Assembly: GCA_044356215.1 (NCBI GenBank)
Contig: JBIKWQ010000061.1
Span: 1-21,751 of the forward strand
Length of the DNA: 21,751 nt
Source: Bdellovibrionota bacterium
GTDB lineage: Bacteria > Bdellovibrionota_C > UBA2361 > OMII01
Direction: 5' to 3'
Numbering within the stretch: position 1 is the stretch's first letter; each line of letters opens with the position of its first letter. A model generated the notes under the pieces. The model ran no database searches. It was not told the origin of the DNA and worked only from the letters and a program-made list of their open reading frames with translations. Positions 115 through 21,197 of this stretch are shown piece after piece. Position numbers and translations under genes: made by a program.

Positions 115-316
115 GTGTCAAGTAGCTCGCAAGCTGCAGGACATCTTGCACCAGACAACCCTACACAGCCTAAACTATCTAGACAACCACAGAACTGTGA
201 AACTTAATCCCCTTTAGTGCATCTTTGGGGCTTACTGTGCGTTCTTGTGCTACTCTGTGTAATCAGCAGCCATTTTAGGCATTGCCGAGCTCCCGCCAAC
301 CTGTTATGAACTTCTG

Positions 317-6215: not shown

Positions 6216-8722
6216 TGAAAGGCAACAAGAAAGGCGCCCTAACGATCGAGGATGTTTTTGATTCTTTGAGCAGATATATAGGAGCCGCTAACCAGGTGGA
6301 TCCAAATCTTGGTAAGTGGCCTTCAATAAAAATTGATCGAAATGAGTCGCGGCGAACGGAGAAAGATCGCGCGGAGATCTTAGATTCCATAATGGGAGTT
6401 GATACTAGCGAGGAGTCCTTCCAATTTTTCACGGAAGCCCGTCAGTCTACCCAGGATACAGCGCTTTTTACGACTTACAGGAATCTTTTACCGGTGCGTT
6501 TTGATAAGCGCGCCTTTAAGATGTTACAGAACTCTGACTGTTTATCATCTGATGTTATTCACCAGATCTCATCACTTTTTTCCGAGCGACTAGTTTATAG
6601 TTTAGACGACGCGCGGAGGGTTTTTGGATCATACCTTCAACCCCTTTTAGCCGGGCAACTGCTCTATGGCGACGTAGCTTGCGCCGAATCTATCTGGGCC
6701 TTGAAAGCAAGTAATCAAGATAGTCATCAGGGTACTCCGATGATAGTCTTTCCAGGTATTCGACTATTTAATTTGATCCGTCATACATCATACAAAATTG
6801 ATTTTCTCTTTAATTTTGCCGTCTCCGAAATGCAGAGTGAGGCCATAGCCGCCAAGGAGCGAGGAAGAGCCCCTTCATATCCCGAGATCGCGCTTAAGAT
6901 AGCAGCTCTTTTAGCAGAGCCTAAGTCATCCCTGAACAGAGCGCTGCAAGCTACGTCGTTCCCCGCAGAGGAGCTCACAATATTAAGGAGTATACTCGGT
7001 TTGGAGGGTCGCCACGGTTCTTTGAAGAGAGATCTACTTCCGCTAAAAGATTTTATCAGAGCAGAGCTCTTAGGTAAGCTTCAAGCTCTTTTAAAAGTAA
7101 GCGCGCCTAGTATCGCAATTGTTGATGAACTAGGTGGTAACGAGAAGAGCTGGGGGCTTAAGTGCTCACCTAACCTCCTAAAGGCTGTGCTCGACTCGGT
7201 TCCGCGAATAGATCTATCAGCGCATAGCGGTAGCCAGGTGTTCTCACCGCAGGCAGTGTCTATAGCGTTAGGGAGCGTCGACCGTGAGGTATTTTTAGGG
7301 AATGTCTACGGGGCGATAATGAGAAACGAGGTCTCTCGGCTTCAAAGTGGGGAGATTTCTCAAGCATCTTTCAAAAAGATTTCAAGTGTTACGTGGTCCA
7401 GTATATCACCAAATAAGACTCGCTCGCTTATCGATAGATTGCTCTCACTTTACTTCGCTAACTTTAGAGGCATAGCTTCTACAGACAAGGCACGGACTTG
7501 TTTGCCCTCTGATTTACTCCGAGCGGAGAGTCTTCGCTTCCGGATACTCGATCGGTTTTCCCTAGCTACAGACCTAGTCAGATTTAGCGAAGCTAGCCCG
7601 GATGGAAAGTGGATCTCCCTAATTGCAGTTAAGCCCCAGGAATGGGGTAGGTCAAATATAACAAGCTCTTTAAGTTTAGTAGATCAGCACGAGCAACCTG
7701 TCCTCGAGGTAGCGTGCTTGATGGGCTGGTTTCTAGGATTTATCGATATCGCCTGGGAGCTCGATTCAAAAGGAATTAAAACAGCAATTAAAGCCGTCCG
7801 AGTAAATAAAGCAAAGTTTCGTGAGGTTATTAATTTAAGGGAAGAGGAAAAAGACACGGCAGTTGCGATAGGAGCGGATCCAACATCAGGTAGAACCGTT
7901 ACAGTCAATCGATACTCAACCAAGGTTGATGTATTGCCATCTGGTGACATATTAGCCGCTCCCGATCTTCATCCAGCGCTCAGATTTTGCCTGTCTACTT
8001 TATTTAGTCCCTCCGCGGGGAATGGGTTCGTCATTCCCACAAAGCTCCCTCCCACCGGCTTCCCCATGGATCTTGAATCAGGAGAAGTGTTGGCCTTTCT
8101 TGAGATAATAAGCAAAAATCCGATTCCGTCTGTGATATCCAGTCGGTTTTCTAACATAGGATCGGAGGGCAATAACGGTAAGAAATTAGGGATATACACA
8201 CCTAGTTTTGTCGTAACCCAAGCCACTAAACAAGAAGCGCAGCGTATTTTAGAGCAGTTTGGGGAATATAAATTGTTTACAGCTGAGATTTCTCCAGGGG
8301 TATGGGGTTTTTATCACAGGCCTGGGTTCGGAGGTCATGACACCGTGAGTATGTACGCAGCTGACTGGGGAGACCCTCGCCATAATCCTACCCACAAGGT
8401 AATTAGCAAAATTAGAAAAGCTGGGCTCAAATTTGATTGTAGCTTTTCAGGTCTAGATCTTATCGCTTCGTTTAATGATGAGCAGTGGGTCAGTATGAAC
8501 GCGTCGCCGACCGATTGTTCTGAAGATTGTGACAGCTTGCCCGAATTGGGGCAGTTCTTAGATTTTCTTGAGGTTAAAGGAACTGATCCTGGGTGGGAGA
8601 AAGACGAGGTAGGAGTTAACATTTTTTCTCTACTGCCTAGTGAGGTAACTAGATCAAAGGTATTTAGCCAGGTTATGTTTCCTTTTTTTGCTTTTATGAA
8701 GACCACAGAGCGTTATCTTTAG
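6215..8722 (+). CDS. 835-aa hypothetical protein, probable XPB partner with a degenerate Helicase_C_3-like domain
   Basis: TGATG stop/start overlap with XPB. The segment VDVLPSGDILAAPD...EVLAFLEIISKNPIPSVI echoes the XPB N-terminal domain (LIINPDLTIFV...ELLKKLSELSQFPIPESV). No Walker motifs seen. Confidence 0.6.
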   Translation: MKGNKKGALTIEDVFDSLSRYIGAANQVDPNLGKWPSIKIDRNESRRTEKDRAEILDSIMGVDTSEESFQFFTEARQSTQDTALFTTYRNLLPVRFDKRAFKMLQNSDCLSSDVIHQISSLFSERLVYSLDDARRVFGSYLQPLLAGQLLYGDVACAESIWALKASNQDSHQGTPMIVFPGIRLFNLIRHTSYKIDFLFNFAVSEMQSEAIAAKERGRAPSYPEIALKIAALLAEPKSSLNRALQATSFPAEELTILRSILGLEGRHGSLKRDLLPLKDFIRAELLGKLQALLKVSAPSIAIVDELGGNEKSWGLKCSPNLLKAVLDSVPRIDLSAHSGSQVFSPQAVSIALGSVDREVFLGNVYGAIMRNEVSRLQSGEISQASFKKISSVTWSSISPNKTRSLIDRLLSLYFANFRGIASTDKARTCLPSDLLRAESLRFRILDRFSLATDLVRFSEASPDGKWISLIAVKPQEWGRSNITSSLSLVDQHEQPVLEVACLMGWFLGFIDIAWELDSKGIKTAIKAVRVNKAKFREVINLREEEKDTAVAIGADPTSGRTVTVNRYSTKVDVLPSGDILAAPDLHPALRFCLSTLFSPSAGNGFVIPTKLPPTGFPMDLESGEVLAFLEIISKNPIPSVISSRFSNIGSEGNNGKKLGIYTPSFVVTQATKQEAQRILEQFGEYKLFTAEISPGVWGFYHRPGFGGHDTVSMYAADWGDPRHNPTHKVISKIRKAGLKFDCSFSGLDLIASFNDEQWVSMNASPTDCSEDCDSLPELGQFLDFLEVKGTDPGWEKDEVGVNIFSLLPSEVTRSKVFSQVMFPFFAFMKTTERYL

Positions 8723-8752: not shown

Positions 8753-9934
8753 TTAATGAGACCTACCGGATTGTTTTTCGCGAAACAAATTTTCCAGACC
8801 CTCGCGCCAAGGCATGACTTCGATGCCTTCTACCAATCGTGGGTGAGATTCACGACAGAGGCAGATATATCGACACCGCGGAAAATCCACCTGTAAAGAG
8901 CGAAGATGAGCGAGATGGGCTTTGGTGATAGCATCACTTGATTTAACCTCGATAAAGATATGCTCTTCTCGTGGTCGCGACAGGACGAGATCAATCTCCA
9001 GGCCACCGGCGGTAGCGAGGTATGAGAGAGAGTACTTGGCGCGAAAGTAGTCGTTCAAGCGACGTGTTTCGTTGATGATGAACTGCTCGAATAGTGGTCC
9101 CCGTTCCTGGCTCGAGAGAGGTGTAAAGCGCAGAGTTTCATCGATGGCCCTCTTCACTCCGCAGTCGAAAAGATAGAATTTGGGAGCATGAAGCTGCTGC
9201 TTCCGCACTGAACGATTAAACGCGGGGAGAAGAGATCCGAGCAAAGTATCCTCTAGAATAGAGAAATAGTTCTGTACCGTTTTCACATCGACCTGAATAT
9301 CGCGCGCGATTGCGGAGAAGTTTATGATTGTTCCGCTAGCCTGGGATGCGACCTCCAAGAAATGCCTAAATGGTTGGATATTCCGCACAAGCTGCTCAGC
9401 GGTTATCTCCTCACGGAGATAGGTGTGAACGTAGGCATCGAGGAACATCTCCTTTGATGAGTCGCTTGATAATCCGAAGATTCGTGGGAGAGTCCCCCAC
9501 TCAAGCGCCTCGTCGAGCGAGAAGCTTGAAGCCATTTCGAACGCCGCTAGCGGATGTAGCGAGAAAACAAACGCGCGACCGGCAAGAAGATTCGCCGCCC
9601 CACGTCGTAGTTTGCGTGCACTAGATCCGGTCAGCGCAAATAGCACCCCTCGAGATTCGATTTCGTGATGTACCACATCAAGCAGGGCGGGGACTTTTTG
9701 CACTTCGTCTATAACTACCCAAGAGTTCTTTTGGTTACGGCGCGCGCTGATTCGTTCGCTTAGCAGGGAGGGATTGTCAGCAAAGCGGCGCTCCTCTTTT
9801 GGGTCAAGGAGATCAATCCAAAGAGCCTTATTACGAGGGTAGCGCTCCTCTAGAAGAGAAGTTTTTCCGGTGCCGCGTGCGCCAAACAGAAAAAAACTGT
9901 TATCTTTCGGTAGGTTAATAGCTCGTGGAAACAT
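8753..9934 (-). CDS. AAA_14 ATPase with DUF4143 and a C-terminal PD-(D/E)xK-like domain
   Basis: Walker A GARGTGKT, Walker B VVIDEVQK, LTGSSARKL, PKFYLFDCG, and EIDLV...IFIEVKS. Confidence 0.9.
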   Translation of the reverse strand: MFPRAINLPKDNSFFLFGARGTGKTSLLEERYPRNKALWIDLLDPKEERRFADNPSLLSERISARRNQKNSWVVIDEVQKVPALLDVVHHEIESRGVLFALTGSSARKLRRGAANLLAGRAFVFSLHPLAAFEMASSFSLDEALEWGTLPRIFGLSSDSSKEMFLDAYVHTYLREEITAEQLVRNIQPFRHFLEVASQASGTIINFSAIARDIQVDVKTVQNYFSILEDTLLGSLLPAFNRSVRKQQLHAPKFYLFDCGVKRAIDETLRFTPLSSQERGPLFEQFIINETRRLNDYFRAKYSLSYLATAGGLEIDLVLSRPREEHIFIEVKSSDAITKAHLAHLRSLQVDFPRCRYICLCRESHPRLVEGIEVMPWREGLENLFREKQSGRSH

Positions 9935-15387: not shown

Positions 15388-16495
15388 TTAAAACTCTCCG
15401 TCCCACATCATATCGAGGAACTCTTCGATCGGAATAATTTCAGTGCCACGGTCCGTTTTTCTGCGAGTCTTCTCGTTGCAAACAATTATTCTTCGTTTCA
15501 GGGGTATCTCCTCAGCGAGAGCCAACATCGAATTCTCCTCCTTGTCTGCTACTCGCCCAGAAGATTTAACCTCAATAGCAATCTCTCTATTCAACAGAAA
15601 ATCCACTTCCAACTTGGTATGACTTCGCCAATAGTGCAAAGAGTAGTCATTACGTCGGTAGTCAATGAAAGCTTTCAGCTCTAGAAAAACGAGGTGTTCA
15701 AACATCTTCCCGTAGATCTCCGTTCCTGGCAGAACCTCGAATCGGTTTAAAATGCCGTTCGCAACTCCGGTATCAAAGAGGTAGAACTTTGGGATGGTTA
15801 CTGACTTTCTCCTCTTGGTGTCTTTGAAAGACTCTAGCTCATGCCCAATCAGCGTATCCTTGAGAATCTGATAATACGCGCGCACCGTGTTGATCTTGAC
15901 CTCCGCGTCATTCGATATGTTTGAATAGTTGAGTTGCTCTCCGTTGGTAAGAGCGGCCACCGTGAGAAATCTAGAAAAATTACCAACTGATCGCGTGACG
16001 CTCTCTACCCTGATCTCCTCCTCCAGATACAAACCTACATATTGAGATAGCTCTTCTTTGAAATGCTCCGAATCGATGATTCCGGGCAGAGAGCCGCGAA
16101 TGACGCGGTCTTGGATCCTAGCTTTTTGGAGCTCGCAGGAGACGAGAGTTTGAAGTACTCGTTGCCAGATTCGACAGCTTCCTTGCGCTGCTTTCGGTCA
16201 AAACGACGCAGATCCGAGGATCTCTATCTAAGATCACCTGAATCTCATCGAAGATCTCAGGGAGGCGCTGCGCTTCATCGACTATAACGGTCCTGGTGCC
16301 TTCGGGTAGCCGTTGCCTCAGTAGCTCAGGGTGGGCACTGTAGGCTCTGTAGGTATCGCGCTCCGCGAGGTTAATTGTAAAGGCGGAAGAAAACTCTCTT
16401 CCGATCAAAGTGCTCTTTCCCGTCTGGCGTGGACCAAGCAATAGAAGTGACTTCTTTTCTAATATCTCTTTTAAGTTTAAGGCTCTGTTGTACAT
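15388..16495 (-). pseudogene. Second AAA_14/DUF4143 ATPase, frameshifted by an approximately 29-nt deletion near 16175
   Basis: The 5' frame has GPRQTGKS, IVDEAQR and LTESSARKL. Another frame resumes RIWQRVLQTLVSCEL...RGSLPG...YLEEEIR...PKFYLFDTG...EVDF...IEVKS. Only 28 nt separate ARKL from the conserved L, versus 57 nt in the intact paralogue at 8753-9934. Confidence 0.85.
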
Positions 16496-17864: not shown

Positions 17865-18212
17865 ATGAAAGGTAGTAGTAGCAGTAACGGTAATAATGGC
17901 AGTAAAGACAACAAGGAGCCTAAAGCGCCAACAAGAGCTCTTCTAATGGAACGCCTCCAAGAGGCTGATAGCAAATCAAAGAGTAAAACCACCACAGTCA
18001 CTCTGCGTATCCCAACAGAGCTTAACGATTGGTTAGATGAGTACCGGCACCTTTCATACCCCCAGCGCATAGAGAAACAGGCGCTTGTAATTGAGGGCTT
18101 AAGGCTCCTTTATATGGCTAGGGGCCAGCCAGGGAGTGATGCGTTTAATTTAGAGGAGGTTTTACTATCAAAGGCTTTAGGGAGAAGTGTCAGCAAATCA
18201 AAGCGTAAGTAA
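17865..18212 (+). CDS. Small putative ribbon-helix-helix DNA-binding protein, divergent from the recombinase
   Basis: GGGAG ribosome-binding site. A low-complexity N-terminus is followed by TTTVTLRIPTELNDWLDEY...KQALVIEGLRLL, a strand-helix-helix pattern. Confidence 0.55.
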   Translation: MKGSSSSNGNNGSKDNKEPKAPTRALLMERLQEADSKSKSKTTTVTLRIPTELNDWLDEYRHLSYPQRIEKQALVIEGLRLLYMARGQPGSDAFNLEEVLLSKALGRSVSKSKRK

Positions 18213-18234
18213 CGTAACCCAATAGGAGGCTAAA

Positions 18235-18753
18235 ATGGATTTCACCATCTGGGATGTACTGCTTGGAATTATCTCGTGGAGTATCCGGATCCTGTTCTGG
18301 CCCCTTGGCTTTGTAATCAAGTACCGCGAGTTTTTCGCGACTGTAATCCCCTACATCGTTACGGGCATAGTAGCTTTGTTCCTTTCTGTCTGGGCGCTTG
18401 GTCTACTAGCCATGATTGCGCAGGCTGTATTCTTTGTGGTGAGTCTTATCTATCGGTTCTTTAAAGGCTGTTTTCTTTTGGCGTATTCGCTAGTAGCAAA
18501 ACCAAAGCTCGAAGCTAACCAAGAGTCCTATGACACTGCAGCACCTCCACCTCAAGAGGAATCTGATCCGTATTACATACTTGGAATAGACCGTAGCGTC
18601 ACCGCTAGTGAACTTACAGCTCGCTATAAGCAGCTTATCAAGGCAAACCATCCCGATAAGGTTGCGCAGGTTGATCCGGAGATCCAGGCGTTTGCGGAGG
18701 AACGATCCAAGAGGATTATCAAGGCGTATGAGGAGGTGGTGGCGGGGCTATAG
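18235..18753 (+). CDS. Membrane-anchored J-domain protein (DjlA-like C-terminal J domain)
   Basis: AGGAGG ribosome-binding site; hydrophobic N-terminal half; DPYYILGI...YKQLIKANHPDKV...IIKAYE with an intact HPD motif. Confidence 0.88.
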   Translation: MDFTIWDVLLGIISWSIRILFWPLGFVIKYREFFATVIPYIVTGIVALFLSVWALGLLAMIAQAVFFVVSLIYRFFKGCFLLAYSLVAKPKLEANQESYDTAAPPPQEESDPYYILGIDRSVTASELTARYKQLIKANHPDKVAQVDPEIQAFAEERSKRIIKAYEEVVAGL

Positions 18754-19017
18754 GCTACTCGGTGTTGACTAGGAGTAATACTATAACCGACAGATTGGGA
18801 CAGGGGTTGAGTAGCGCAGAGGAGCTGATATCCTCTTGATAGTACCAGTCGAATACCTGGTCACTGTCAACCATTAATATAGTGTGAGTGTAATATGCTA
18901 AAGCGATGTAATGGCGAGCTGTTTGGAGCGTTTCAGGTCGATGTCGGCGCAACTGACCTTAAGAACGAGTCCCTTTCAACTAGTATTCAGTTTGACTGCG
19001 GAGGCGGGCTCGCGCAT

Positions 19018-19755
19018 ATGCCAGACGCAGCCACCCCGAGCCAGGAAAGTCTTCCTCCTATACTTTCTAGTAAGGCTGTAAGGGACGCTAATCTAACAAA
19101 AGAAGATTTCAAAACAGTACTCGATCTAGTCCATGGAAGTTTAGAGTTAAGGCTTGGAAAGGACAGCGCCCTTGAGTGGTGCCTGACTTATAAAGATGTA
19201 GAGCCTGGAAAGATGCAAGAAAAAGTACAGGCCTTTGCGACTGAGCTAAACGAAAGACTTGCTAAAATGGTCGCTGCTTTACCTTATAAGGATAAGATGC
19301 AACGCGGCTGGAAAGTTTATTTGGCAGATAGGTGCGAACTTCCCGAAGTCTCTGAGAAGCAGAATGTTACGGTCTTCTCCACAACGCTAATTGAAGACTC
19401 ATTTAATAGGCACAGGTCAGAGGCAACCACGATCAACGGCGAAGTCCGTACTTCGATGAATGAGTTCCTGAATAATCGTGGTCAGCCTTGGGTAAAACAT
19501 CATCATGTACGATTGTCCATCGCTGCTTTCCGTTGTGTTGTAGGATTCCCTCAAGAGTTTGATGTATTAGCTACCGATAAGGACCCAGGAGCCTTGTGCC
19601 AAGGCAAGATAGTACTGACAGACATAGCGGGCTCTTCTTCTGGTTCTGCGGCGTCCTTTCGGTATGGCGTCTACGACAACTTCTGGCGCGACCGCGTCTT
19701 CGCTGATGACGTTGTTGGTGTTGTCGGCGGCCTCTCCCCGGAATCAAATAATTGA
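19018..19755 (+). CDS. Hypothetical protein with a C-terminal DGR-like variable repeat (likely start ATG 19018; ORF is open from 18895)
   Basis: GGAGG at 19000-19004. The last 40 or so codons are A-poor and NNY-rich (YGVYDNFWRDRVFADDVVGVVGGLSPESNN) and are homologous to 20300-20414. Confidence 0.7.
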   Translation: MPDAATPSQESLPPILSSKAVRDANLTKEDFKTVLDLVHGSLELRLGKDSALEWCLTYKDVEPGKMQEKVQAFATELNERLAKMVAALPYKDKMQRGWKVYLADRCELPEVSEKQNVTVFSTTLIEDSFNRHRSEATTINGEVRTSMNEFLNNRGQPWVKHHHVRLSIAAFRCVVGFPQEFDVLATDKDPGALCQGKIVLTDIAGSSSGSAASFRYGVYDNFWRDRVFADDVVGVVGGLSPESNN

Positions 19756-19866
19756 TAGTTGATCATTGGTTTTTTGATCCCCTCCCGACTTCGCCAAGGC
19801 TACGTCTGACAAGCCTCAGGAGGGGTTGGGGTTTTGATCATTGGTGCTTTGATCGAAATTTTTTTT
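19631..19866 (+). repeat. Cassette copy 1: putative DGR variable repeat, constant 3' block and hairpin
   Basis: 38 bp identical to copy 2 (19735-19772 equals 20394-20431). CCCCTCC/GGAGGGG stem at 19779-19825. TGATCATTGGT repeats flank the stem, and the cassette ends CTTTGATCGAAATTTTTTTT. Confidence 0.8.
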
Positions 19867-19895
19867 AAGCTTTAGCCTAGTGGACGGATCTGGTA

Positions 19896-19926
19896 GACTT
19901 GTCATTACCTTGGGTAATGACAAGTC
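19896..19926. other. Perfect 14-bp inverted repeat GACTTGTCATTACC-TTG-GGTAATGACAAGTC
   Basis: Read directly. Function unknown: operator, REP-like element or part of a structured RNA. Confidence 0.8.
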
Positions 19927-20018
19927 GGCTAAGGCTTCCTTGCACCCAAGGGCTGTTCCCACAGTAACAACTGTAAAGTAAACTTTGCAGGAACTGCCAG
20001 AGTCATTGCGTCCAGATG

Positions 20019-20042
20019 AGAGGCGGCGTAGCCGCCTCTTTT
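20019..20042 (+). terminator. Probable intrinsic terminator
   Basis: AGAGGCGGC-GTA-GCCGCCTCT stem followed by a short T run. Confidence 0.55.
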
Positions 20043-20300
20043 AGATTCAACGAGCGTGCAGAACTGTGATGGGAGCAGCAATTCTTGTCCAGGTCTCGTG
20101 AGGGGATCTTGCTGGTTGGTATCGGACGATACCAAGGCTGTGAAGCTTAGATAATGGCACCACAACCCCTCCAAATAAAATTCAACCGTGAGAAACGCGT
20201 AAAGGCGCTCAAACGGTGGTGGGTCCGTAAGGGCTTGGGCAATAGGATGTGCGTCTTGCTCGGGCGCCCTGGACATCGATGATAAGAGAATAAGAGTTCC

Positions 20301-20498
20301 GGGCGGGCTGTTTCTGGTGGTCGCATTTTCGTCTTCGACGACTTCTGGCACGACTTCGTCAATCGTCGTTATTGCGCGTTTTTCGGCGCCTCGTCCCCGG
20401 AATCAAATAATTGATAGTTGATCATTGGTTTCTTGGTCCCCTCCGCTAGGAGGGGTTGGGTCCATTGATGATCATTGGTCCTTTGATCGAAAAATTTT
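20301..20498 (+). repeat. Cassette copy 2: orphan DGR-like variable repeat with a 7-bp stem and GCTA loop
   Basis: Reads VFDDFWHDFVNRRYCAFFGASSPESNN* (stop 20412-20414), but in-frame TGA TAA at 20280-20285 cut it off from any upstream ORF. Hairpin CCCCTCC-GCTA-GGAGGGG at 20438-20455. Confidence 0.78.
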
Positions 20499-20503
20499 GT
20501 TCG

Positions 20504-20818
20504 TCAGGCAGCTAACTTCAGCGGCACATAAGCCCCGCCCCTTTTTACTGCGATCTCTCCCCCAAGGGCTGCAATCATCTTTATAAAGGTATTAAGAGTG
20601 ATGTTTTTGTGTTTCCCAGAACGAACACTTTGAACGACAGAAGGCGCTACCCCTATTTGCTTCGCCAGTTTCCTCACAGAAACGTTATCTTCTGCCATCA
20701 TTGCGAGAATGAGTTCAGAAAGTACAAGTCCGCCATACTCTTTCTCAAAGAGTTTTCGAAACTTTGGATTCTCCATCTCTTTTTCGTAGGTGGATTTAGT
20801 ATTAGCGCGCTTTTTCAT
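20504..20818 (-). CDS. Xre-type HTH antitoxin, HigA-like (likely start ATG 20818)
   Basis: HTH VSVRKLAKQIGVAPSVVQSVRSGKHKNITLNTFIKMIAALG; overlaps the toxin 3' end. Confidence 0.85.
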   Translation of the reverse strand: MKKRANTKSTYEKEMENPKFRKLFEKEYGGLVLSELILAMMAEDNVSVRKLAKQIGVAPSVVQSVRSGKHKNITLNTFIKMIAALGGEIAVKRGGAYVPLKLAA

Positions 20819-21197
20819 AATAGGTGCCTCTCTTAATCCGTAACTCAAAGTCTGCTTTTGCCTTCAACGCTCTCGATTTCTCTCCAGAAGGAAGTTTTTG
20901 GCCCTTCTTCTCGAAGCCGTTTGTGATGAGGATCTTTTTACCTGTCACAAAGAAGCAAAGGTAACGATCAGGTTGCGGCTTGAATGCGAAAATCTGATCT
21001 CCTTCGTTCCTAAACTTCGTTATATCGAAAATCTTCCCGATATCTCCCATTATCCGAACCAACTTAAGGAACTTAATTCGACGCTCGTCTGAGAGGCCCT
21101 CGTAATACTCACGAGCGGGGCAGTGACCCCGCTCATCAAAATACCACTCGATCGAAAAAGCTTGCCCCTTATAGACCAGGACGTCAGAAGACTTCAT
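20802..21197 (-). CDS. RelE/ParE-superfamily toxin (HigB/Gp49-like)
   Basis: KFRNEGDQIFAFKPQPDRYLCFF...ILITNGFEKKGQKLP; toxin-first gene order with the Xre gene. Confidence 0.85.
   Translation of the reverse strand: MKSSDVLVYKGQAFSIEWYFDERGHCPAREYYEGLSDERRIKFLKLVRIMGDIGKIFDITKFRNEGDQIFAFKPQPDRYLCFFVTGKKILITNGFEKKGQKLPSGEKSRALKAKADFELRIKRGTYYEKAR

Follow-up and report, generated by a model that had tools for sequence, protein, structure and literature searches.

VR-type DGR cassettes on a plasmid-like contig of an uncultured Bdellovibrionota bacterium: a probable decayed copy of a DGR locus

On a contig of an uncultured Bdellovibrionota bacterium, the 3' end of a gene recurs downstream of that gene. 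What are the two repeats, and which enzyme, if any, acts on them? A preliminary description of the DNA analysed here (21,751 nt; hereafter the window) had taken them for variable repeats (VRs) of a DGR, a known bacterial retroelement of "targeted hypermutation". In a DGR, a reverse transcriptase (RT) copies the RNA of a template repeat (TR) and inserts bases at random wherever the template has adenine. The VR is then overwritten with this mutagenised cDNA, so that AAC codons of the TR turn into any NNC in the tip of a C-type-lectin fold. The analysis below indicates that (i) the window repeats are target sites of a DGR, (ii) a plasmid-like contig is the setting of both cassettes, and (iii) the TR and enzyme genes for these cassettes are elsewhere, or lost.

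A repeat search of the window returned three pairs: 19721–19785 with 20380–20444 (65 nt, 89% identical), 19668–19698 with 20330–20360 (31 nt, 84%), and 19835–19864 with 20469–20498 (30 nt, 90%). It also returned two occurrences of AGGAGGGGTTGGG, and bore out the described recurrence of the gene's 3' end (copy A) further downstream (copy B). The identical block reported earlier runs for exactly 38 nt from 19735 and 20394; an identical repeat of this length within 21.7 kb is not a product of chance (expectation ~1e-15, our own arithmetic). Direct reading of the ten codons compared previously gives five mismatches, all at codon positions 1–2, as described. Both copies are indeed poor in adenine, with 8 A in 19631–19740 and 8 A in 20301–20400, against 26.6% A in the window; only six of 21,642 segments of 110 nt are this poor in A (at most eight), with starts in 19627–19632. 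A CCCCTCC/GGAGGGG stem was found after both copies. A 4-nt loop, given in the preliminary description as usual for DGR hairpins, is present in copy B (GCTA) but not in copy A, where the loop measures 33 nt because of a 29-nt insert (a single unit, 19787–19815). The features of this region are as follows.

19735–19772, + strand: 38-nt block, first copy; last 9 nt of the TR/VR homology (TCCCCGGAA), stop codon, and VR-specific downstream part (IMH-like side).
20394–20431, + strand: 38-nt block, second copy, by identity to the first.
19779–19825, + strand: GC hairpin of copy A; 7-bp stem (19779–19785/19819–19825), 33-nt loop.
20438–20455, + strand: GC hairpin of copy B; 7-bp stem (20438–20444/20449–20455), 4-nt loop GCTA; DNA fold −8.3 kcal/mol.
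20469–20498, + strand: stretch shared after the hairpins (TGATCATTGGT.CTTTGATCGAAA), from the repeat search.

The number of such 29-nt units in the hairpin loops ranges from 0 to 3. A promoter and terminator scan of 19700–20560 gave one promoter-like site (0.7 expected) and zero terminators (1.3 expected), and is uninformative.

Copy A forms the 3' end of a protein-coding ORF, to which the following features belong.

18235–18753, + strand: membrane protein with a C-terminal DnaJ domain (Pfam DnaJ, 4.5e-08), conserved neighbour upstream of the target.
18895–19755, + strand: DGR target gene (P0001, 286 aa) with predicted C-type-lectin fold, from orthologue alignment and structure model.
19630–19743, + strand: copy A, VR of the target gene; hypervariable block 19657–19719.

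The ORF had been taken to start at 19018; a start at 18895 is most likely, since orthologues align from residue 1. An orthologue on a relative's contig (L018), with the same DnaJ-type gene upstream, differs from copy A at 19 of the 63 nt of the hypervariable block, distributed 7/12/0 over the codon positions. Outside the block, 37 of 762 nt differ upstream (4.9%) and 0 of 36 in the last 36 nt. The same limits apply in 11 aligned orthologues, which are hypervariable in the block and vary little elsewhere. In a congener (G046), a TR stands after the same spacer that follows the window's target gene and before avd; relative to this TR, which like that compared with copy B below is a related template and not the copy's own, copy A carries 17 A-to-N and 3 non-A differences (silent transitions) over 114 nt. 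The AAC template predicted in the preliminary description to lie beside avd and RT is thus present nearly as predicted in the congener, while none was found in the present assembly. Taken together, these comparisons identify copy A as a VR.

None of four target proteins gave a Pfam or NCBIfam match above cut-offs, in keeping with the earlier remark that the family is an unrecognised one. The 286-aa protein has 15 relatives, and the family has 32 cluster representatives among 1.84 billion proteins. An earlier model, built from 11 sequences, was poor (pLDDT 66.5; Foldseek best E 0.041, VIA best Z 3.0); the present one has a pLDDT of 83.6 and is confident over residues 50–283. VIA-align of this model over 48,161 chains gave PvdO as the best match (Z 6.6), with EgtB at Z 5.6 and TaqVP at Z 4.5; among the 50 matches listed, ~43 are, by title, C-type-lectin, link-module or FGE/EgtB-type domains. 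The model also matches two known DGR variable proteins of C-type-lectin fold, TvpA of Treponema denticola (2y3c; Z 6.3, rmsd 3.8, 137 aligned residues) and Mtd of phage BPP-1 (1yu0; Z 6.0, rmsd 3.2, 120 aligned residues). All of these fold matches are moderate (every Z <8), and Foldseek with the same model gave no match at E <= 0.001. The protein is accordingly only predicted to adopt the C-type-lectin fold proposed for it at the outset, with the VR as its C-terminal part.

The absence of an RT from the window had been noted before; Avd, a DGR-type RT and three A-rich TRs sit on other contigs of the same genome, with avd placed as follows.

Contig C123, 31313–31663, − strand: Avd gene next to TR and RT (PF22296, 1.4e-18; NF033474, 83.7 bits, cut-off 80).

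The genome has five VR ends in total, and three TR ends. Each local TR/VR pair differs at TR adenines alone, with 18, 20 and 18 A-to-N changes in the three pairs (56/56 substitutions). TRs part from VRs directly after GGAA, continuing as CTGCTGTCTCCCCC in TRs and TCAAATAATTGATAG in VRs. The IMH*-type pattern occurs at four places (the three TRs and one unrelated place, on C40) and the post-VR pattern at six (the five VRs and one unrelated place, on C96); the CCCCTCC/GGAGGGG stem appears after VRs only and not with TRs. Sequence comparison places both copies, A and B, among VR-type DGR cassettes.

Could the repeats have nothing to do with DGRs? A duplicated terminator, or an extragenic repeat of the REP or MITE type, might overlap a gene end by chance. 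The block is indeed multi-copy (five places in the genome), the hairpin is flanked by short direct repeats (TTGATCATTGGT), and in four runs the depth of bin 20362–20455 exceeds that of the target-gene bins by several-fold to about 30-fold. However, all genomic copies follow a VR, three of the five can be paired with an A-rich TR showing A-only differences, one adjoins Avd and RT, and variation among orthologues is limited to TR-adenine positions. The fit to the G046 TR and the three A-only TR/VR pairs contradict such an origin, to which we give almost no credence.

The genome's DGR RT (RVT_1 match on C12) shares 78% identity with RTs some 360 aa long. The assembled portion comprises residues 2–229 and stops ahead of the catalytic motif; residues 230–360, which include that motif, were not found anywhere in the assembly. 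N-terminal pieces of the RT lie at the ends of C123 and C43. The RTs on C121 and C115 are 26–31% identical to relatives of the DGR RT, and near-full-length relatives were found in 7 of 34 other genomes of the genus. In several genomes the RTs are truncated, and TRs are mosaic.

By similarity, the window locus is paralogous to the DGR locus of C123: positions 18110–18837 are 94% identical to C123 29272–29999, upstream of the C123 target, and the VR end and spacer are 86% identical, while the target bodies are unlike. The intact layout in the lineage comprises a DnaJ-type gene, a target gene with VR end, an IMH-like block and a GC hairpin, then a conserved non-coding spacer (~490 bp in the window), an A-rich TR, avd on the opposite strand, and RT. 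Downstream of its target gene, the window contains the following.

19756–20242, + strand: conserved non-coding spacer, by identity to other loci; in paralogous loci and the congener it spans the interval between VR hairpin and TR.
20243–20300, + strand: 58 nt at the site of the TR start in other loci; origin uncertain, with a faint resemblance to the 5' part of the C64-type TR.
20301–20402, + strand: copy B, non-coding repeat (no ORF) of VR type, whose 5' edge (GGGCGGGCTGTTTCTGG) is of TR type.
20504–21197, − strand: gene pair, HTH (HigA-like; Pfam HTH_3, 3.3e-05) and Gp49/HigB-like (Gp49, 5.7e-08), 3' of copy B.

The spacer is 86–94% identical to those of C123, C64 and C4, and is also present in G046. 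A minus-strand ORF (19929–20351) was rejected as a gene: its variable sites are spread 6/9/6 by codon position, with no third-position excess. An Rfam search of 19500–20700 returned just a PinT-like match (E 0.28, far under the gathering score). For the 58 nt, local alignment with the 5' part of the C64-type TR scores 12; shuffled sequences averaged 7.2 (sd 1.4), and 12 was attained in 2 of 300.

Copy B, whose 38-nt block was also placed across a stop codon in the preliminary description, is not the end of a gene: it has no ORF, and two stops lie 35 codons ahead of its stop. In a 63-nt core, copy B differs from the TR of C123 (TR_C123) by 15 A-to-N and 4 non-A changes. Its 5' edge, GGGCGGGCTGTTTCTGG, is that of TR_C123 and unlike that of VR_C123, while VR character is seen in its body and, with the IMH-like block, 7-bp stem and 4-nt loop, on its 3' side; it occupies, after the spacer, the place of the TR in paralogous loci. 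In our reading, copy B is the relic of a rearrangement in which the TR-avd-RT core was lost, and the window probably holds a decayed DGR locus copy from which that core has gone. An origin of spacer and copy B as one long read-through cDNA insertion was rejected, the spacer adenines being intact relative to three other spacers.

How might such a locus have arisen? Copy A is a VR that was diversified in the past. Most likely, TR, avd and RT were lost when the TR region recombined with the VR end of another target, or when the stretch between these two was deleted; the same event would have joined the spacer to a VR-type tail, copy B. On L018, a single VR is followed by the same junction to a HigA-like (antitoxin-like) gene as is seen after copy B, and no TR was found in that contig. 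The two identical 38-nt blocks may later have recombined to give this single-copy form. Either form, one-copy or two-copy, could come first, and passage from the window form to the L018 form requires a crossover confined to a stretch of just 13 nt. The window contig itself ends in a repeat.

A more unusual history would make copy B a former TR, which gained the IMH block and hairpin of the target side, after which its own adenine-mutagenised cDNA overwrote it. Copy B stands exactly in the TR's place after the spacer, its 5' edge is that of a TR and its 3' side that of a VR, and of the 22 adenines in the core of the nearest TR, 15 have been substituted (own count); in BPP-1, moreover, IMH and hairpin suffice for recipient status (PMC3240598). 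If true, copy B would be a natural DGR in which the direction from donor to recipient was lost, now a non-coding pseudo-target, and would point to DGRs dying by their own activity. Yet homologous recombination between TR and VR yields the same structure, 58 nt of other sequence separate the spacer from copy B, and neither avd nor RT follows it. Adenine retention (7/22) is also no lower than in an ordinary VR on C123 (4/22; own counts), and so gives no sign of repeated self-erosion. We consider this history distinctly improbable, and prefer the rearrangement relic.

It remains to ask whether copies A and B are still in use. An adenine-tolerant scan of all 131 contigs found no cognate TR for copy A, and for copy B only the imperfect TR of C123. 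The latter was rejected as last donor because its 3' 30 nt differ; the 4 non-A mismatches in the core are a second point against it. That neither copy is the template of the other, as originally argued, was upheld: mismatches lie off adenines, and there are indels between the copies. The assembly breaks exactly at TRs and within RT, so a missing cognate TR is not proof of absence. The metagenome scan gave two loci only. In one run (X4), a contig carries 20371–20402, the 3' end of copy B, after A-rich letters (AACTGGAACGACAACGACAATCGTAACA), and an IMH*-type loose end (CTGCTGTCTCCCC...) starts at 20402. Bin 20268–20361 has no cover in the X2 and X4 contigs, which is uninformative either way. The 24 metagenome runs found are in contig form; contigs from four of them carry copy A without change, although contigs hide minority variants.

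The preliminary description had both copies as remote targets, and part of this stands: they are VR-type cassettes, with machinery elsewhere in the genome. Are they live ones, diversified now in trans by a TR and RT elsewhere? The three pristine TR/VR pairs imply that an RT was recently at work in the genome, making service of A or B in trans possible; the stem and 4-nt loop of copy B are intact, the X4 contig joins its 3' end to A-rich letters, and non-phage DGRs with remote targets are on record (Wu et al., PMC5758913). Nevertheless, the assembly has no cognate TR for either copy, TR_C123 cannot be the last donor of B, copy B encodes nothing, the sole assembled DGR RT lacks the catalytic region, and copy A is invariant among the runs. 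Its 33-nt loop is a further difficulty: in BPP-1, two extra loop nucleotides cut homing to near background (PMC3240598). We regard live diversification of both copies as unlikely. With an assembled RT that lacks its catalytic half and a copy A unchanged in the contigs of four runs, present activity is unproven. Barring service in trans by an unassembled TR and an intact RT, which we think doubtful though a little easier to envisage, copies A and B are orphan or fossil targets.

The locus can be compared with three published systems. The BPP-1 DGR (mtd-VR, avd, TR, brt) has the same adenine-specific TR-to-VR differences, a VR at the 3' end of a gene for a C-type-lectin-fold protein, an Avd accessory protein, and, beyond a GC-rich homology end, a VR-specific block and then a GC hairpin (7-bp stem, 3–4-nt loop). 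Unlike BPP-1, avd here follows the TR on the opposite strand, VR and TR are separated by a conserved non-coding spacer rather than by avd, the hairpin begins about 35 nt past the homology end, the window has a second, non-coding VR-type tail instead of the TR-avd-RT core, and the element sits on a plasmid-like contig of an uncultured bacterium rather than in a phage. Order and strand of the intact C123/C12 paralogue and of G046 are those of architecture B3, TR-(avd)-RT, as given by Wu et al. 2018 (PMC5758913), who also describe non-adjacent and multiple targets; unlike B3, the window copy lacks the core, and the target family lacks a Pfam domain such as FGE-sulfatase. By the same source, the Treponema denticola DGR has several remote targets for one TR/RT, and carries an HRDC accessory gene where Avd is found here; its remote VRs match a same-genome TR with A-only differences, of which none was found for A or B.

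In a full-text literature search, no paper came up that joins DGRs with Bdellovibrionota. Raw sequence alone had sufficed to recognise the cassettes, and a congener then supplied the AAC-rich template that had been predicted. The locus adds a Pfam-less family of predicted C-type-lectin fold to the targets of DGRs, in an uncultured lake bacterium. Its hairpin loops, of zero to three units, are a natural series for testing the effect of loop size on target recognition. Finally, the paralogues would provide a snapshot of DGR turnover, in which one scaffold (DnaJ-type gene, target, VR, hairpin and spacer) carries unrelated target bodies and, at one locus, a VR-type tail replaces the TR.

A repeat search of the window found the tail of ORF 18895–19755 again ~660 bp downstream, in three segments:

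Repeat segments in the window
19721–19785 and 20380–20444: 65 nt, 89%
19668–19698 and 20330–20360: 31 nt, 84%
19835–19864 and 20469–20498: 30 nt, 90%

The first copy of the repeat, copy A (19630–19743), ends the gene for the 286-aa protein P0001; copy B lies at 20301–20402. The two share an identical run of exactly 38 nt, beginning at 19735 and 20394. On direct reading the preliminary description was correct in its ten-codon comparison of the copies, in its adenine counts (8/110 in copy A, 8/100 in copy B) and in giving both copies a CCCCTCC/GGAGGGG stem; windows of 110 nt with eight adenines or fewer number six of 21,642, all six at copy A. Two of its details needed correction. Firstly, the gene most likely starts at 18895 instead of 19018, because orthologues align from residue 1. 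Secondly, copy B is part of no ORF, there being two stops 35 codons ahead of its own stop.

The window is the complete contig C33, of 21,751 bp. It is plasmid-like, carrying a ParA-type ATPase, a PF10134 replication initiator, a tyrosine recombinase and a HigBA-like pair. Other features of the contig include:

Further features of the window contig
1–60: tandem copies of TTCAGAAG at the contig start
4407–13630: XPB/Rad25-type helicase (602 aa), family-less 835-aa protein and 1187-aa SNF2-family helicase
8753–9934: intact fused AAA_14/DUF4143-type gene
15388–16495 (minus strand): AAA_14 and DUF4143 domains split over two ORFs (16118–16495 and 15388–16032), probably a broken copy of an AAA_14/DUF4143 gene

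P0001 matches no Pfam or NCBIfam family; a word-indexed search gave 15 relatives, and 32 cluster representatives were found among 1.84 billion proteins. In an alignment of 11 relatives, variation is concentrated in GSAAS-xxx-GV-xxxx-W-xxxxx-A-xxx-VGVVGGLSPE. Against an 85%-identical orthologue on L018, a metagenome contig of a relative, block 19657–19719 differs at 19 of 63 nt (codon positions 7/12/0), the 762 nt upstream at 37 (14/15/8), and the last 36 nt at none. An A-rich template repeat (TR) had been predicted, and it was essentially found, albeit in another species: in this assembly an adenine-tolerant scan (up to 22% non-A mismatch) gave copy A alone. A 27-nt piece of copy A's invariant 5' part is present in 5/34 other genomes of the genus, and twice, ~770 nt apart, in the congeneric genome G046. 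The first G046 site is a variable repeat (VR) with a GTAA-loop hairpin; the second is a TR, followed by CTGCTGTCTCCCCC, an opposite-strand avd and the first ~25 codons of a reverse transcriptase (RT). This TR fits copy A, with 17 A-to-N and three other changes in 114 nt, the latter all silent transitions. Copy A is a true VR.

RT and avd had been placed elsewhere, and both are indeed on other contigs of the same genome (3.24 Mb, 131 contigs), together with three TRs, the RT being partial. A 35-nt block occurs at two further genomic places, on contigs C4 and C64, and the sequence lying between copies A and B in the window (the spacer, 19756–20242) has counterparts of 86–94% identity on C123, C64 and C4. 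There it links a VR hairpin to an A-rich, AAC-filled repeat ending in GGAA followed by CTGCTGTCTCCCCC. A scan for the TR-end pattern gave four places (TRs on C123, C64 and C43; an unrelated one on C40), and the pattern of the post-VR block gave six (VR ends on C123, C64, C4 and at window copies A and B; an unrelated one on C96). Comparing each of the three TRs with its local VR gives 18, 20 and 18 substitutions, every one of them at a TR adenine; two of the pairs also have one indel each, of 3 or 6 nt. The opposite-strand gene after the C123 TR is Avd (PF22296, 1.4e-18; NF033474, 83.7 bits against a cut-off of 80). The RT start behind it runs off the contig end and is continued on C12. This RT is 78% identical to metagenome RTs of ~360 aa, and its assembled part (on C123, C43 and C12) comprises residues 2–229 only; C12 beyond residue 229 is unrelated, and the C-terminal half was not found anywhere in the 131 contigs. 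In its order, target-VR ... TR-(avd)-RT, the locus corresponds to "architecture B3" of Wu et al. 2018 (PMC5758913).

RT genes of these diversity-generating retroelements (DGRs) are truncated at three different sites, which suggests frequent decay, or assembly breaks:

RT breaks
this genome, C12 ~543: after residue 229
G046, locus L023 ~190–260 (minus strand): after ~25 codons
L018, 8090–8449: 5'-truncated, beside a high-GC recombinase fragment

One DGR target (C4 1598–7792, stretch L010) is a giant diversified protein, an open frame of >2064 aa from near the contig start; its VR is the last ~40 residues, and its last 530 residues have no clear Pfam match.

The spacer, conserved at 86–94% in four loci and also in the congener, where it precedes the TR, matches no Rfam family. 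It appears to be non-coding, and may carry the promoter of the DGR RNA or part of that RNA's upstream end. On C4 it is broken at ~8128–8318 (stretch L003, ~1857–2047) by a ~190-nt insertion with internal inverted repeats; a similar end is seen by eye on C121 (~9500–9579), and the insertion may be a small mobile repeat.

Copy B stands after the spacer, with 58 nt between that weakly resemble the 5' part of a C64-type TR (score 12; shuffle mean 7.2; reached by 2/300 shuffles). Its 5' edge, GGGCGGGCTGTTTCTGG, is that of the C123 TR and not of the C123 VR. Over a 63-nt core it differs from this TR at 15 adenines and four other positions, and its 3' 30 nt are unlike it; a VR-type block follows, then a 7-bp stem capped by the 4-nt loop GCTA. 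Contigs of metagenome run X4 hold a form absent from this genome: in a 768-nt contig the spacer is followed by AGA, a 5' part resembling that of copy A, the letters AACTGGAACGACAACGACAATCGTAACA and the sequence from 20371 on, and a loose end, CTGCTGTCTCCCC..., which we infer belongs to it, starts at 20402. Together they indicate a TR of copy B's 3' type in the community. Copy B thus has a VR-type body and 3' side, and stands at a TR's place.

The window locus appears to be a paralogue of the C123 locus, with 94% identity over 0.7 kb upstream, including a DnaJ-type gene, 86% over the VR end and spacer, and unrelated target bodies. The product of the DnaJ-type gene (window 18235–18753; C123 29272–29999) is a multi-pass membrane protein whose DnaJ domain is C-terminal; the gene is kept upstream of unrelated targets in these two loci and also in L018. 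In L018, the single VR and hairpin of the orthologue are followed directly by the window's copy-B junction to a HigA-like gene, with a 5'-truncated DGR RT 1.2 kb beyond. Most simply, recombination or a deletion would have joined the TR region of a full cassette to the VR end of a different target, removing TR-avd-RT and leaving spacer, copy B and hairpin; later recombination between the two repeated blocks could then have given the L018 form. An origin of spacer and copy B in a long read-through cDNA is ruled out, because the spacer adenines are intact. Copy B could also be a TR that captured the VR-side block (IMH) and then mutagenised itself. The product would look the same, but copy B keeps 7/22 adenines, no lower than the C123 VR (4/22), and we rank this below recombination.

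The hairpin loops vary. The loop of the target hairpin holds from 0 to 3 tandem copies of a 29-nt unit (GACT.CGCCAAGGCTACGTC.GACAAGCC), and all four genomic matches of this unit lie in such loops:

Occurrences of the 29-nt unit
window 19787–19815: one copy, in the copy A loop
C123 30708–30765: two copies
C4 7824–7852: the unit
L018 ~6892–6980: three copies

Copy B, the C64 VR and the congeners have plain 3–4-nt loops. The unit could alter target recognition, yet the VR on C123, which has two units, still differs from its own TR at adenines only.

We consider it unlikely that A or B is being diversified at present. An RT was active in this genome recently, as the three pristine TR/VR pairs show, and near-full-length RTs occur in 7/34 other genomes of the genus (any match, 9/34). 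However, the assembly holds no cognate TR and an incomplete RT, and the copy A loop is 33 nt; in BPP-1, two extra loop nucleotides cut homing to near background (PMC3240598). Copy A also reads the same in contigs from four lake-metagenome runs, although all 24 runs found are contigs only, so that minority variants of it are invisible.

A first P0001 model (11 sequences) was poor; a second (39 sequences) reached pLDDT 83.6 and is confident at residues 50–283. With it, Foldseek returned nothing at E ≤ 0.001, while VIA-align against 48,161 chains gave:

VIA-align matches of the P0001 model
PvdO: Z 6.6
T. denticola TvpA (2y3c): Z 6.3, rmsd 3.8, 137 aligned
Mtd (1yu0): Z 6.0, rmsd 3.2, 120 aligned
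EgtB: Z 5.6
TaqVP: Z 4.5

Dozens of classical C-type-lectin domains stand below these. Judged by titles, which we take to denote one shared fold class, ~43 of the best 50 rows are of the C-type-lectin fold. Z is moderate, yet the list is one-sided, and the modelled structure supports the C-type-lectin-like fold foreseen for the target.

The DGR described here has a known architecture and a C-type-lectin-fold target, and remote and multiple targets are already known (Wu et al. 2018, PMC5758913). An uncultured freshwater Bdellovibrionota as host fits one RT relative, labelled Bdellovibrionales, and the lake origin of the metagenome runs. A full-text literature search combining DGRs and Bdellovibrionota gave no paper; relatives may be listed in the supplement to Wu et al. 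What is new, modestly, is (i) a target family that no Pfam model covers, (ii) the host lineage, Bdellovibrionota, and (iii) the odd VR-type tail at a TR's place.
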